From UHGV virus genome UHGV-0004901: 38,194 bases of DNA. One strand, given 5' to 3'. This DNA comes from a virus. The notes below the pieces were generated by a model. The model was not told the DNA's origin, did not search any database, and saw nothing but the letters and a program-made list of their open reading frames with translations. This document shows, piece by piece, positions 5,292 to 33,652 of this stretch (position 1 is its first letter; the number at the start of each line of letters is the position of its first letter). The position numbers were made by a program, and so were the translations under genes.

Positions 5292-5876
5292 TTATTGTTT
5301 GTTTTTTTCGTTCTGGTTGATGACAAATTCAATGTAACTTTCGATCTTTGCTTTCTCGGTTTCGGGTAACAATGCGTAGCGCGAGCGATCATAGTTGATG
5401 GTCGCAGGGTCGTGCGGGTGAATCAGTAATTCATAGCCGTGACGCCCGAATGCGGATGCAACATTCTCCAGGGTGGAAATGGAAACGCTGACCTCATTGT
5501 TTAACAGGCGGCTGATTGTCACCTGGGCGACGCCGGATGCGCGGTGTAGTTTTCCCTGCGTTGAAAGGTCGCGGCTTTCGCTCATCCAGCGTTCCAGGTT
5601 GTGAGCCGCCAGCTGACCTATATCACTCGGGCCGACAGGCTGAAAACCTTCCTGAGAAAGCGAGCGATCGATATCAAGCCAGTTACGGGGTTTATTGGCG
5701 GCAGCTTCAATTTTTCGCGCAACCTGGTCGCCGATAACCTTCTTGCCAAGAGCCCAGCGGTTTACCAGATTTGCCTGAGTTCCAAGTTTTTCTGCCATCC
5801 GCGTCTGAACACCATTGAATTCACGGTCGATCAAGTCGTTGAGATTTTGCCTGCGGACGTCCTGGATACTTTTCAT
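5292..5876 (-). CDS. Immunity repressor (CI-like) with two HTH domains and no S24 peptidase domain
   Basis: 194 aa; two XRE-type HTH-like segments (…TRMAEKLGTQANLVNRWALGKK… and …ASGVAQVTISRLLNNE…); divergent from the Cro-like gene across an operator cluster. Confidence 0.7.
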   Translation of the reverse strand: MKSIQDVRRQNLNDLIDREFNGVQTRMAEKLGTQANLVNRWALGKKVIGDQVARKIEAAANKPRNWLDIDRSLSQEGFQPVGPSDIGQLAAHNLERWMSESRDLSTQGKLHRASGVAQVTISRLLNNEVSVSISTLENVASAFGRHGYELLIHPHDPATINYDRSRYALLPETEKAKIESYIEFVINQNEKNKQ

Positions 5877-12592: not shown

Positions 12593-14064
12593 CAGATGCA
12601 GCGTTATCTCCTGAAGAGCAGTTGATCGAGGATATTGCAGGGTTCACTCACGATCCGCTTGGCTATGCCCTCTATGCGTTCCCGTGGGGGGAAGAGGGGA
12701 CTGAACTGGCACATGCTACCGGCCCACGTCAGTGGCAGGCCGATGCGTTCCGAGAGATACGTGATCACCTGCAGAATCCCGAGACGCGCTATCAGCCGCT
12801 TATGCTGGCACGTGCTTCGGGCCACGGTATTGGTAAATCAGCATTCATCTCAATGTTGATCAACTGGGGCATGTCCACTTGCGAGGATTGTAAGGTCGTG
12901 GTGACCGCCAACACCGACAACCAGCTACGAACGAAGACCTGGCCGGAAATTATCAAGTGGTCGAACCTTGCTATCACGAAAGACTGGTTTACCTGTACCG
13001 CTACCGCGATGTACAGCAATGATCCTGGGCACGACAAGCGGTGGCGAGCTGACGCAATCCCCTGGTCTGAGCACAACACTGAGGCATTCGCCGGACTACA
13101 CAACGAGCGCAAACGCATCATCGTGGTATTCGATGAAGCGTCGAACATTGCGGATCTGGTGTGGGAAGTTGCTGAGGGTGCGCTTACGGACGAAGACACT
13201 GAGATTATCTGGGTGGCGTTCGGAAACCCTACTCGTAACACCGGGCGTTTCCACGAATGTTTCCGCAAATATAAACACCGCTGGAAAACTGCGCAGATTG
13301 ACAGCCGGACGGTGGAAGGCACTAACAAACAGCAGTTGCAGAAATGGGTTGATGACTACGGGGAAGATAGCGACTTCGTTAAAATCCGTGTGCGCGGCAT
13401 ATTCCCTGATGCATCTGAATTGCAGTTTATCCCTACCGGTCTTACTGATGAGGCAATGAAACGGGTGGTAACCGCTGCGCAGGTGGCGCATGCTCCGGTG
13501 ATAATCGGCGTTGACCCGGCATACTCCGGCGTTGATGACGCTGTGATATACCTGCGGCAGGGGCTGCACAGTAAGGTGCTATGGACTGGTAACAAGACCA
13601 CCGACGATCTGATTATGGCGAAGCGTATCGCTGACTTTGAAGACCAGTATCAGGCTGACGCGGTGTTCATCGACTTCGGTTACGGTACCGGTCTGAAGTC
13701 AATCGGTGATGGTTGGGGGCGCACATGGCAACTTGTTCCGTTCGGTGGCGCGTCTACTGACCCGCAGATGCTCAACAAGCGTGGGGAGATGTTCAACTCA
13801 TGCAAGACATGGCTGAGGCTGGGCGGGATGCTGGATGACCAGGAAACAGCGGACGACCTGTCGGCGGCAGAGTATAAAGTTCGAGTGGACGGTAAAATCG
13901 TTATCGAACCGAAGGAAGATATCAAGGAGCGGCTTGGGCGTTCTCCTGGTAAAGGCGATGCGCTACTGCTGACGTTTGCTTTCCCTGTGTCAAAGCGTCT
14001 GCGAATTCCCGGGCAGCAGAACCAGCAAGGCAAGGCCATCACAGATTACGATCCCTATGCTTAA
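12589..14064 (+). CDS. Terminase large subunit (GTG start)
   Basis: 491 aa; Walker A-like ARASGHGIGKSAF; overall terminase ATPase/nuclease layout. Confidence 0.9.
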   Translation: MTDAALSPEEQLIEDIAGFTHDPLGYALYAFPWGEEGTELAHATGPRQWQADAFREIRDHLQNPETRYQPLMLARASGHGIGKSAFISMLINWGMSTCEDCKVVVTANTDNQLRTKTWPEIIKWSNLAITKDWFTCTATAMYSNDPGHDKRWRADAIPWSEHNTEAFAGLHNERKRIIVVFDEASNIADLVWEVAEGALTDEDTEIIWVAFGNPTRNTGRFHECFRKYKHRWKTAQIDSRTVEGTNKQQLQKWVDDYGEDSDFVKIRVRGIFPDASELQFIPTGLTDEAMKRVVTAAQVAHAPVIIGVDPAYSGVDDAVIYLRQGLHSKVLWTGNKTTDDLIMAKRIADFEDQYQADAVFIDFGYGTGLKSIGDGWGRTWQLVPFGGASTDPQMLNKRGEMFNSCKTWLRLGGMLDDQETADDLSAAEYKVRVDGKIVIEPKEDIKERLGRSPGKGDALLLTFAFPVSKRLRIPGQQNQQGKAITDYDPYA

Positions 14065-14113
14065 TCCGCTAGTGGGGATAATGTCGTTGATATCCTCTGA
14101 TGAGGATAAAACA

Positions 14114-14140
14114 AAGCCAGCTCATCGGCTGGCTGTTTGT
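14114..14140 (+). terminator. Rho-independent terminator after the terminase large subunit gene
   Basis: AGCCAGC-TCATC-GGCTGGCT hairpin followed by GTTTGT; immediately followed by a GTGACATGTCAC palindrome. Confidence 0.55.
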
Positions 14141-14150
14141 GACATGTCAC
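14139..14150. repeat. 12-bp perfect palindrome GTGACATGTCAC (copy 2 of 3)
   Basis: Direct reading. Confidence 0.8.
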
Positions 14151-14154
14151 GGTG

Positions 14155-14511
14155 TTATTGCTCGCTTAACTTCTGCTTCAGCAAGTAACCTTCGAGCATC
14201 CAGATTTTGTTTACAGCATTCTGCCGGGCAATCTTCCGACCAATTTCTGCATCAAAATTTTCCGGACTTGCACAGGCACTCTCTCCGGTGACGGTGAAGC
14301 CATTCTTCAGTACCAATACGCAGAAAGTCAGGAGGTCTGTAGATTTATGCGCTGTCCATGAATCGCCAACGCCCATATTGGCAGCACGAATGCCGTCATA
14401 AGCAGTAAAGAAATGCTCTTCAAGAATGATGCTTTCGATATATTGAGGCGTAACTCGCGGAGCGGTTTTGCCTTTCTCAACGATTTCTTTTTCGATTTGC
14501 TGGTCGTTCAT
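14155..14511 (-). CDS. Hypothetical protein (118 aa), reverse-oriented insert between terminase and portal
   Basis: ORF with SD AAGGTGAG; preceded directly by a terminator hairpin; no recognisable motif. Confidence 0.55.
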   Translation of the reverse strand: MNDQQIEKEIVEKGKTAPRVTPQYIESIILEEHFFTAYDGIRAANMGVGDSWTAHKSTDLLTFCVLVLKNGFTVTGESACASPENFDAEIGRKIARQNAVNKIWMLEGYLLKQKLSEQ

Positions 14512-14522
14512 AATCTCACCTT

Positions 14523-14546
14523 AAAAAAATGCCCGGCGAACCGGGC
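14523..14546 (-). terminator. Rho-independent terminator downstream of the tRNA, abutting the SD of the 14155..14511 gene
   Basis: Minus-strand GCCCGG-TTCG-CCGGGC hairpin followed by a T7 run. Confidence 0.65.
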
Positions 14547-14709
14547 GAACTGGAAGCAATGAGTTATGCCTTCCGTGGCTGTACTGGTTTACAGCATGAA
14601 GTCATCGCAATGGCGTCCTGCTGTAAAAAGGGCGGTGATAGTCCTTCAAGGGAAACCATCACCGCCAAGCCCCTGGAACTTCTGGCATCACGGTCCTTAG
14701 GCGTGATTC

Positions 14710-14786
14710 TGGCGTGGCATGCAGGATTCGAACCTGCGACCAACCGCTTAGAAGGCGGTTGCTCTGTCCAACTGAGCTAATGCCAC
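14710..14786 (-). tRNA. tRNA-Arg, anticodon UCU (decodes AGA), phage-encoded
   Basis: Folded by hand: 7-bp acceptor stem GUGGCAU/AUGCCAC, D-arm GCUC..GAGC, anticodon stem ACCGC/GCGGU with loop CUUCUAA, T-arm GCAGG-UUCGAAU-CCUGC, discriminator G and encoded CCA. Confidence 0.85.
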
Positions 14787-15108
14787 AACGCTGAGAGCAC
14801 TTAGCCTGTTAAGGCGCCACACTTTGTCGCGGCTCCATAAATGCTCTCATCGTTGTACCCTCGTCTCTTCCGAGGCGTCACACCGAATCGCCGGGATGGT
14901 GAATCCCCGTGCGCGGAATAAAACCGCTCGACTTGCACATTCCGGCTACCTGGTTCGTTTGCCCGAGCAAGGGAGGGTGCCCCTTAAACGTATCCAGACC
15001 GCTATCGGCGCATGTGCCATACGCCGTACTGCTCAAAATAAAAGCTCACTCCACCTGTTCAATTTAACGACAAGCCAGTCAGGTTAATAACCGGAATGAA
15101 CCATTTGC

Positions 15109-15123
15109 TTACCTGAAAGGTAA
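15109..15123. promoter_or_regulatory. Operator-like palindrome TTACCTGAAAGGTAA upstream of the virion gene block
   Basis: Direct reading; followed at 15165..15187 by a CATATGTGGTT-N5-GGTAATA element. Confidence 0.5.
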
Positions 15124-15213
15124 TAATTCGTGCGTTAAATGTCAACTGTCTACGATAAATAAATCATATGTGGTTAAATTGGTAATAATTTAATTGCGTA
15201 CGGAGTCATTGAT

Positions 15214-15420
15214 ATGTGCATGGGTAGCTCACCGTCAGTGCCTGCAACACCAGAAGTTCAGGCAGCACCACAGGAGCAGGATGCCGCCGTTGTTGATGCC
15301 CGCGACGAAGAAACTCGTCGCCGTCGCGCTGCTGCTGGTCGTAGTTCTACGCTGCTTACCGGTTCTCAGGGTGACACATCAACCGCTAATACCAGCGGTA
15401 AAACGCTGCTTGGTCAGTAA
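15214..15420 (+). CDS. Small low-complexity protein (68 aa), possibly a minor virion protein
   Basis: Initiation context CGGAGTCATTGATATG is nearly identical to the portal gene's (CGGAGTCATTGAAATG). Confidence 0.4.
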   Translation: MCMGSSPSVPATPEVQAAPQEQDAAVVDARDEETRRRRAAAGRSSTLLTGSQGDTSTANTSGKTLLGQ

Positions 15421-32672: not shown

Positions 32673-33383
32673 TCAGAAGAACCCTGCCTTGTCGTTGATG
32701 TATTCCGCGTGCGTCTGGATATCACGCAGGCATTTGCTCACACCGACGATGTAGCAGAACATGGTGGTCAGCTCCGCCGCCGCGCCCGATACGTCGTGCC
32801 CGTCTTCCTGTAACTGGTTCAGCAGATTCATCAGCAGTGAGTTCTCCGTCAGGCCGAGAACACCAGACGGCGAGTGAATCAGGCTGCGGTAGCCGGGCTT
32901 CAGCGGGGCGCTGTAGGTTTTGTTCTCTATCTTCATTGCCTGCATCACTGCTGATGCTGTGGCGTTTGCAACCTGGTCGGCAACCATCTTTATGCGTTCT
33001 TCCTGCGGGAGCGAGTTTTTAATGTAACTTCCGGTGCGGCGGATCTGAGGAAGAACCTCACCTGTAACCCATTTACGAAAGCGGTAGGGGATAGTGCCTG
33101 GTGTCACTGCGTCGCGGCAGCGGAGGATCAGTGTGTAGAGGCCTGACTCGGAGATGATGTTGATCTCTTTTACTCGGCTGTCAAAAATTGCACGATGTTC
33201 ATGCCCTATGTTGAACATAGACCTTTCATCATCATCCAGTTTTTCAAGTGCTTGGGTGACGTTTTGGATACGCAGCGCACTACAAACGTCTTGGGCTACA
33301 AACCATGGTTGGCCATCGATAATGATGGAACGGATAGGGTTAACAGATTCAAATTTGAAGATGGCAGTTTGAGCATTAGCCAT
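32673..33383 (-). CDS. ant: Antirepressor with Bro-N/KilA-N-type N-terminal domain
   Basis: ...FESVNPIRSIIIDGQPWFVAQDVCSALRIQN...GLYTLILRCRDA... matches Bro-N; start at ATG 33383 with SD GGAG. Confidence 0.8.
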   Translation of the reverse strand: MANAQTAIFKFESVNPIRSIIIDGQPWFVAQDVCSALRIQNVTQALEKLDDDERSMFNIGHEHRAIFDSRVKEINIISESGLYTLILRCRDAVTPGTIPYRFRKWVTGEVLPQIRRTGSYIKNSLPQEERIKMVADQVANATASAVMQAMKIENKTYSAPLKPGYRSLIHSPSGVLGLTENSLLMNLLNQLQEDGHDVSGAAAELTTMFCYIVGVSKCLRDIQTHAEYINDKAGFF

Positions 33384-33652
33384 GGTGGTTATCTCCACTT
33401 AGTGATTTTAATCACCACCGCAACGCCAATTACTGGTGGTGAACTGGACAAGGTTGGCGTACCGGCCTAAGTGGTACCGGCGTCCTTTCGGACCCCTGCC
33501 CAGCCCACCATAATTCGGATATAGCTGTGCTTAACGCATAAAAAAACCACGTCTGGCGTGGTATGCGCCACTTAGTAACTCGGGACGCCAATCCCGGCAC
33601 TGGATTTTGCCAGTACCCGATTACTATGGCACAAGAGGAGTGCGATGTAAAT

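Follow-up and report, generated by a model that had tools for sequence, protein, structure and literature searches.

A conserved structured RNA, possibly an antiterminator, in a probably repressor-controlled cassette between the terminase and portal genes of an epsilon15/phiV10-like phage

How is a gene expressed that begins directly behind an intrinsic terminator, and what is the function of the long leader at the other end of its transcription unit? These questions are raised by a reverse-oriented insert on the minus strand between the terminase and portal genes of the viral genome UHGV-0004901; the complete stretch of 38,194 nucleotides (nt) was analyzed and is called the window here. The insert had been noted in a first-pass annotation made from the letters alone; it is indeed present, and the order is the same in related phages. 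It is an accessory cassette of a temperate phage of the epsilon15/phiV10 type, most likely early and under repressor control, and is composed of an operator-overlapped promoter, a structured RNA, a tRNA-Arg(UCU), two intrinsic terminators, and a swappable cargo open reading frame (ORF), in this order. The cargo gene, which encodes a protein of 118 amino acids (aa) assigned to the Acb4 family, and the tRNA are ordinary, and the RNA is the interesting part. It may be a cis-acting, put-like processive antiterminator, a reading to which a probability of about 0.4 is given on the basis of sequence comparisons.

The region upstream of the tRNA had been described as a GC-rich leader of about 320 bp. 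This was correct for length and composition, which are about 325 nt from the likely start site around position 15110 to the tRNA and a GC content of 0.52 to 0.57 compared with 0.385 to 0.45 in the flanks, but the region is no mere leader. It is a real, conserved structured RNA family with a pseudoknotted core and a long 3' hairpin. Its parts in the window are as follows.

15032..15108, minus strand: 5' part of the leader, present in phiV10-like phages only and not kept by other subtypes
14855..15031, minus strand: core of the structured RNA, about 165 to 177 nt (covariance model R1, 143 bits; covariation)
14785..14856, minus strand: 3' hairpin of the RNA with the helices P7 (ACAACG/CGUUGU) and P8 (GAGAGCA/UGCUCUC) and a variable tip

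The core has five helices in total, which are arranged as a hairpin P1, a helix P2 with a variable hairpin inside it, a three-way junction that includes P5, and a hairpin P6 with a GAAGAGA loop; the pairings GCAC:GUGC and CACC:GGUG are candidates for two pseudoknots. A pattern scan of IMG/VR yielded at least 120 loci, and 36 representatives with less than 94% similarity were used for an alignment, A2. In this alignment, 98.8% of the cells were paired, and compensatory changes were found in 9 pairs and 71 cells. None of 500 shuffles reached the observed paired fraction, the number of compensatory cells, or the covariation score, and only 27 to 44% of the cells paired when the structures were slid by 1 to 3 columns. 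The covariance model R1, built from A2, found single copies with 100 to 168 bits in prophages of Citrobacter, Kosakonia, Klebsiella, Enterobacter, Kluyvera, Phytobacter, Erwinia, Buttiauxella, and others. Another alignment, A3, was composed of loci from other Enterobacterales that had been fetched with a 17-mer different from the pattern of the A2 retrieval; many chance matches of this 17-mer in Bacteroidota and other phyla were thrown out by the covariance model. A3 showed 98.9% pairing and 10 compensatory pairs, with none of 500 shuffles reaching any of five measures. Because two alignments obtained with different sequence patterns agree on pairing and compensatory changes beyond what shuffles provide, the leader RNA is real.

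About 60 nucleotides do not vary, and most of these lie in loops and junctions (UGGCACAUG, AGCGGUC, GGUAGCCGGAAUGUGCAAG, CACCA, GGUGUGAC, and the GAAGAG loop). Phages whose proteins are unrelated have them in common, across more than 20 host species. Such invariance across phages that have no proteins in common suggests a host-encoded partner, which might be RNA polymerase (RNAP). Of 128 loci, 92 have the long 3' hairpin (ACAAC..GAGAGCA/UGCUCUC..GUUGU) behind the core; the strands of this hairpin covary, and its hypervariable tip measures between 15 and 176 nt. Between about 15027 and 14787, the leader is roughly 80% identical to unannotated DNA of unrelated phages, namely, P1, P7, D6, and lambdoids such as mEp460, mEp390, cdtI, and the Stx2c phages. 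The RNA occurs in 1,840 of 5,426 complete Escherichia coli genomes, and no annotated feature lies over it in 40 of the 40 records listed.

With Rfam 15 at the gathering threshold, the window gave only the tRNA and the RNAs C4 and isrK; at E values of up to 10, no match overlapped positions 14787-15110, and the lambdoid copies of the RNA were also without a match. No description of the RNA was found in the literature by sequence string, by topic, or in one supplement. The Pas small RNAs are not the leader RNA: they are smaller, of the Hfq type, and restricted to Escherichia and Shigella. A protein-coding leader was also rejected. No coding sequence is called there in the RefSeq genomes of E. 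coli, the hairpin lengths vary by non-multiples of 3, the covariation fits an RNA, and the ORFs that are annotated over the RNA in mEp460 and mEp390 do not agree in strand. In the window, 11 bp, one of them G-U, can form between the segment CAUUCCGGUUA of the 5' leader (about 15076-15086) and the invariant core segment UAGCCGGAAUG (about 14925-14935). The minimum-free-energy fold pairs both segments, which would mask the core. This pairing is not conserved in other subtypes and could be a switch or chance.

By genome similarity and synteny, the phage is an epsilon15/phiV10-like temperate podophage of the genus Uetakevirus. Its DNA between 14100 and 15230 (1.1 kb) is 91 to 98% identical to that of phiV10, the E. 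coli O157 typing phages 9 and 10, ZX5, and others, and the gene order small terminase, large terminase, reverse-oriented insert, gp3, and portal (the portal protein matches PF12236) is common to the relatives. The other features of the unit, from upstream to downstream, are listed here.

15109..15152, minus strand: early promoter with TTGACA at 15145-15140, a spacer of 17 nt, and TACCTT at 15122-15117; the alternative is TAGACA/AATTAT (promoter scan)
15109-15123, minus strand: palindromic operator TTACC-N5-GGTAA over the promoter (sequence)
14710..14786, minus strand: tRNA-Arg(UCU) with encoded CCA (ARAGORN, Rfam)
14687..14708, minus strand: conserved hairpin AUCACG-N-CGUGAU directly 3' of the tRNA (the motif recurs in many loci)
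14623..14666, minus strand: terminator T1, GGCGGUGAUGG...CUAUCACCGCC followed by CUUUUUAC (terminator scan)
14523..14546 (hairpin at 14531-14546), minus strand: terminator T2, GCCCGG-UUCG-CCGGGC followed by AU7, adjoining the Shine-Dalgarno (SD) sequence
14155..14522, minus strand: SD sequence AAGGUGAG and the 118-aa cargo gene (ORF at 14155-14511; Pfam PF13876)
14115..14134, minus strand: terminator T3, the end of the unit, which it separates from the end of the terminase gene

Late transcription of the plus strand from the terminase genes to gp3 and the portal gene crosses about 1.15 kb antisense to this early unit (14064-15214), and T3 is annotated in phiV10 as a putative terminator of the plus strand.

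The promoter scan revealed only one promoter-like site in the unit, at about 15117-15152. Between the tRNA and the ATG (14512-14709), neither the scan nor inspection of the letters found a sigma-70-like match, and therefore, read-through is the simplest route to expression of the cargo gene. This agrees with the first-pass annotation, which had regarded the gene as terminator-gated, but that annotation had seen only T2, while two terminators stand in tandem. The palindrome TTACC-N5-GGTAA is present in 15 copies in the window (9 of them exact), compared to 0.56 expected by chance. Its positions are 136, 5158, 5220, 5932, 5980, 6317, 8287, 8349, 11964, 11982, 15109, 32586, 33653, 33746, and 34866, with clusters at the gene for a helix-turn-helix repressor (5292-5876), at replication genes, and at the C4/isrK-Bro antirepressor operon. 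By analogy to the C1 system of P1, these copies look like dispersed operators of a phage repressor. Other Uetakevirus-type loci show the same layout of promoter and operator, and in ZX5, a nearly identical phage, overexpression showed both repressor and antirepressor to be functional (PMC9782041). The operator over the promoter, the dispersed operators, and the functional ZX5 pair are the reason to read the unit of RNA and tRNA as early and repressor controlled. In the antirepressor region, a C4 antisense RNA (33432-33515, minus strand) and an isrK-like RNA (33540-33616, minus strand) are located upstream of the Bro-N antirepressor gene (32673-33398), which is a P1/P7-type immunity-I module inside a Uetakevirus. 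The pair of C4 and isrK is also present in the lambdoid mEp460 and in Stx2c phages that carry the new RNA (L004, 206-394; L006, 776-964).

The tRNA-Arg(UCU) is real, and it is located inside the phage genome, both as claimed before. ARAGORN called it at 14710-14786 on the minus strand with the anticodon tct at position 35 and a cloverleaf with a 7-nt anticodon loop, the Rfam model RF00005 gave 73.3 bits compared with a gathering score of 29, and a tRNA-Arg is annotated at the same place in KP869107, KP869108, and MN187550. The 3' hairpin of the RNA and the tRNA overlap by two bases, so that the last stem ends at positions +1/+2 of the tRNA. In 35 phage ORFs, AGA and AGG were found to be enriched, with 4.4 and 4.0 per 1000 codons, respectively, and together 14% of the Arg codons. 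The figures for E. coli are about 2 for AGA and 1.2 for AGG; the phage level is thus about two to three times higher. The tRNA would supply decoding for these codons, which is the usual role of such tRNAs.

With a GC-rich hairpin and a U tract behind it on the transcribed strand, T1, T2, and T3 all qualify as predicted intrinsic terminators, and the region has 4 terminator-like sites versus 1.8 expected from shuffles. The T1 hairpin (14631-14666) directly behind the tRNA has 14 bp, a predicted energy of -22 kcal/mol, and a CUUUUU tail, and is stronger than T2 with about -11 kcal/mol; the predicted energy of T3 is about -10 to -12 kcal/mol. The T2 hairpin is followed by A and T7, the T run leads straight into the SD sequence AAGGTGAG, and the ATG is at 14511, 12 nt past the T run; this arrangement was found as it had been described, while T1, the hairpin at 14687-14708, T3, and the leader RNA had been overlooked. 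About 100 nt separate T1 from T2, and this spacer is 75 to 80% conserved between phages of E. coli and Salmonella. The AUCACG-N-CGUGAU hairpin is also located 3' of a tRNA or of a cloverleaf-like domain in many other loci. In mEp460-type lambdoids, a homologous terminator with a covarying stem is located 3' of the RNA. Of 112 loci, 77 contain the T1 motif, and 79 have a predicted intrinsic terminator that separates the RNA from the first co-oriented ORF.

The 118-aa gene had been left without a name; the ORF is there, but it is not anonymous. Its product matches PF13876 (Phage_gp49_66) with an E value of 1.7e-34 and 118.6 bits (cut-off of 27) over profile positions 1-82 of 82, and phmmer gave a weak direct match to PDB 9e4w, the crystal structure of SPO1 Acb4, with an E value of 0.006 over the conserved motif. 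Chang et al. equated the Acb4 family of sponges acting against the cyclic oligonucleotide-based antiphage signaling system (CBASS) with PF13876, and 8 of the 8 homologs tested bind 3'3'-cGAMP (PMC11722364). Binding of 3'3'-cGAMP by a tetramer and the block of CBASS are known for other members of PF13876 only (PMC11722364). The 118-aa protein is accordingly named here as a PF13876/Acb4 family member and predicted cyclic-dinucleotide sponge, which may counter cyclic-nucleotide immunity.

The junction T2 hairpin-U7-AAGGUGA-N4-6-AUG is kept in related phages, and the T2 stem covaries ahead of different cargo ORFs (GCCCGG/CCGGGC versus GCCCAC/GUGGGC, with a UUCG loop). At least five unrelated ORF families were found behind it. 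The junction is conserved while the ORF is swapped; it is therefore a conserved terminator-gated cargo slot and no classical attenuator. The former description as attenuator-like had to be given up also for the following reasons: there is no leader peptide, no leader ORF is conserved, the short ORFs after the RNA vary, no alternative antiterminator hairpin pairs with the T2 stem, and the tRNA separates the core from the terminators. The ORFs in the slot of other phages, such as phrog_4846, phrog_11049, phrog_18493, and phrog_4780 (263 aa, with membrane and coiled-coil segments), are candidates for further counter-defence or exclusion genes. These unrelated ORFs occupy the slot at L013, L036, L052, L065, L071, L089, and L108, and searches of the PDB with three other cargo proteins gave nothing informative. 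In six L011-type loci, no ORF begins behind T2, and an operator-like TTACC-N5-GGTA is present there instead.

The context of the RNA differs between three phage groups. In the Uetakevirus-type loci, an operator-controlled promoter is followed by the RNA, the tRNA-Arg, the hairpin, T1, T2, and the cargo. In P1, P7, and D6, the RNA lies between trnI and ban; the P1-type order is tRNA-Ile, the core only, and then the SD sequence of ban, with about 365 nt between tciC and ban in P1. In the lambdoids mEp460 and mEp390, a Stenotrophomonas-labelled phage, and the Stx2c phages, the RNA directly follows cI and precedes the early-left genes, which is the position of putL in HK022. There, the RNA starts 10 to 50 nt past a promoter that is located just beyond the cI terminator and has the same operators as the cI/cro intergenic region. 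It is followed by a GUGG...CCAC cloverleaf-like domain and the T1-homologous terminator, and only then by the early-left genes, with 300 to 700 nt from the core to the first ORF. In the Uetakevirus-type and lambdoid loci alike, the core is about 10 to 120 nt behind operator-bearing promoters. The RNA also occurs without any tRNA. Among the first ORFs or early-left genes after the RNA in the lambdoid carriers, no N-like protein was found. Casjens and co-workers reported that the phage LLS, the cI of which is 89% identical to that of mEp460_4F5, is without N, and an RNA mechanism was guessed (PMC12315714); the mEp phages had been collected as Nus dependent (PMC11893012).

The cloverleaf-like domain at the place of the tRNA in lambdoids comprises 80 to 150 nt, with GUGGUGA at its 5' end and UCACCAC-AAC at its 3' end, and adopts a cloverleaf fold (L004, 2741-2870, in mEp460; similar in L006, L014, L049, L052, L063, and L076). 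A T-arm-like hairpin CCGGAGAUCAGCACCGG covaries with CUGGAGUUCAGCACCAG, and L076 keeps the D-arm UUAGCUCAG. As a tRNA, the domain was not confirmed, with no ARAGORN call and no Rfam tRNA match at E values of up to 5, and the z-score of its fold, -0.92, is not significant. A 24-aa peptide after the RNA in mEp460 that resembles an arginine-rich motif (ARM) was rejected: it is not conserved as a protein, and what is conserved there is a hairpin at the RNA level, with one compensatory change. In one lambdoid subtype, L072 (1537-2055, plus strand), a convergent gene for a predicted membrane protein of 172 aa with its own terminator is inserted directly behind the RNA core, in the path towards the early-left genes; it looks like a moron placed within the PL operon. 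In L093 (3517-4100), the 3' part of the RNA seems to be rearranged or duplicated, with a second ACAAC..AAGAGCA/UGCUCUU..GUUGUGG hairpin after a truncated tRNA-like start; this suggests frequent recombination inside the module.

What may the RNA do? As an antiterminator, it would act in cis on the RNAP that has made it and would render this enzyme resistant to T1 and T2, functionally like the put RNA of HK022 although structurally unrelated. The cargo gene would be expressed only from the early promoter upstream of the RNA. In N-lacking lambdoids, the RNA at the start of the PL transcript would allow RNAP to pass the terminator and the inserted genes before the early-left genes. Four arguments lead to this interpretation: the RNA is promoter proximal and co-oriented in three phage groups; the invariant nucleotides in phages without common proteins suggest a host partner such as RNAP; strong terminators precede genes that must be expressed, including that of a stoichiometric sponge protein; and the lambdoid carriers are without N. 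A stoichiometric sponge encoded behind two strong terminators would make little sense unless these terminators are overcome. Going one step further, the RNA may be, tentatively and with a slightly lower probability than the antiterminator function itself, the founding case of a new class of phage RNAs, a pseudoknotted RNA of about 165 to 240 nt that modifies host RNAP for read-through of terminators, replaces N in many lambdoids, and gates counter-defence cargo such as Acb4.

Several observations weigh against an antiterminator. R1 finds nothing in the put regions of HK022 at PL and PR, and the sole resemblance to putL (ACGGCG...CAUGCGUCG) is absent from putR. A boxA-like match beyond chance is absent from the leader and from the PL region of mEp460. 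There is one copy of the RNA per phage and none on the PR side, according to R1. The P1-type core follows tRNA-Ile and immediately precedes ban, and no terminator has to be passed there. Epsilon15 (L005, 2809-2990; also L118) has a deletion of the tRNA-Arg together with most of the core and the 5' half of T1, yet T2 and the intact Acb4-like gene are kept; hairpin P3 and the T1 loop contain the similar sequences GGUUCCCUUGAUGCU, and recombination between these apparently produced the deletion. The locus set is redundant, and its retrieval was pattern based. Moreover, the usual order of RNA, tRNA or cloverleaf-like domain, and strong terminator resembles that of a self-contained RNA gene.

This last observation fits the main alternative, which is somewhat less probable than an antiterminator: a discrete, trans-acting early RNA, the 3' end of which would be cut by RNase P at the tRNA or tRNA-like domain, with most transcripts ending at T1. 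The released RNA would act on a host component as a decoy or sponge in takeover or counter-defence, and the cargo gene would be served by leaky read-through. RNase P matures the C4 RNAs of P1 and P7 and the CI RNA of P4, which is a precedent. The recurrence of RNA, tRNA-Arg or cloverleaf-like domain, hairpin, and strong terminator in Uetakevirus and lambdoids, with homologous terminators, fits such a gene, and so do the slot after the RNA that always starts with GUGG and ends with CCAC, the last stem that ends exactly at the tRNA +1/+2, and the neighbouring accessory or counter-defence items, the tRNA and Acb4. The module architecture and the P1 context, in which the RNA comes after a tRNA, are better suited by a trans-acting RNA than by an antiterminator. 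However, the cloverleaf-like domain is not recognized by ARAGORN or the Rfam tRNA model, and its fold has the low z-score already mentioned. In P1 and in L060, the core is a plain 5' untranslated region with no element forming a 3' end, and expression of the early-left genes behind T1 in N-lacking lambdoids would be left unexplained.

Alternatively, the RNA could be the passive structured leader of an ordinary tRNA operon plus moron, with T1 and T2 being leaky and allowing a low constitutive expression of the cargo gene after derepression. The RNA would only stabilize the transcript, block loading of Rho, or aid processing of the tRNA. This is improbable. A stabilizer or a Rho block needs neither about 60 invariant nucleotides nor two candidate pseudoknots, the conservation extends across prophages of Escherichia, Salmonella, Klebsiella, Citrobacter, Kosakonia, and Erwinia, and the RNA occurs also where there is no tRNA to be processed. 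Nevertheless, the core is always 5' proximal in the long untranslated stretches of lambdoids and P1, epsilon15 manages without it, and phage tRNA-Arg(UCU) genes and terminator-flanked swappable accessory genes are common. Least probable is a promoter of the 118-aa gene itself that was not recognized (non-consensus, using another sigma factor or an activator) in the T1-T2 spacer, with the terminators as insulators: the conserved spacer could hold such a signal, but there is no sigma-70-like match in 14512-14709, and T2 would be within the transcript, 12 nt before the ATG, and still terminating.

Whichever function applies, one third of the complete E. coli genomes, P1, and prophages of Klebsiella, Citrobacter, Salmonella, and others carry an RNA that no annotation pipeline names. 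How the early-left operon passes terminators in N-lacking lambdoids is a problem for which the literature only guesses at a "put-like" RNA; the RNA described here is located exactly where such an antitermination element is expected, and the question becomes testable by reporter fusions. The slot behind the RNA, the tRNA, and the anti-CBASS sponge is a promising place for new counter-defence genes and for control of their timing. If the RNA is no antiterminator, about 60 invariant nucleotides in an early phage RNA would still imply an interaction with a host machine.

Comparison with known systems begins with the ordinary parts of the unit. The tRNA corresponds to the tRNA-Arg(UCU) of temperate coliphages, likewise a phage tRNA matching over-used rare codons. 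The cargo protein shares PF13876 and the conserved motif with the Acb4 family (SPO1 Acb4, PDB 9e4w), but its gene occupies an early slot gated by terminators, in which other phages have other ORF families. Like a moron, the cargo is a terminator-bracketed accessory gene swapped among relatives; a typical moron, however, brings its own promoter, while here the terminator and the SD sequence are conserved and only the ORF changes.

Concerning the RNA, the C4 RNAs of P1 and P7 and the CI RNA of P4 (the C4 clan of Rfam) are also phage regulatory RNAs cut from longer early transcripts, but they are antisense RNAs of about 80 nt with known targets (a1/b1), whereas the RNA described here is larger and unrelated in sequence. 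A general analogy can be drawn to the species 1 and 2 RNAs of T4 and to MALAT1/mascRNA, in which a structured RNA is joined to a tRNA or tRNA-like element that possibly defines its end via RNase P; there is no sequence relation, and the tRNA-like domain is not recognized by tRNA models. With the N/nut system of lambda and the boxA of the rrn operons, the RNA would share terminator read-through in early operons, and the mEp carriers come from the Nus-dependent collection. Such a system is defined by a boxA resembling YGCUCUUUAACAA, a boxB hairpin, and an N-like ARM protein. Here, no N-like protein follows PL, and no boxA-like match beyond chance was found in the leader or the mEp460 PL region.

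The closest parallel is the put class of HK022, in which an RNA makes RNAP terminator resistant in cis, dependent on the zinc-binding domain of the beta' subunit. By structure and consensus, the RNA does not belong to the put family, as indicated by the missing R1 match in HK022, the different architecture, and a motif shared with putL only: put RNAs have about 70 nt and two stem-loops and are present at both PL and PR, while the putative antiterminator has a core of about 165 nt, two candidate pseudoknots, and a long hairpin, and occurs once per phage. Both are structured, and neither has an evident phage protein partner. In its location, just downstream of an early repressor-controlled promoter and upstream of terminators in lambdoids without N, the RNA agrees with putL and putR.

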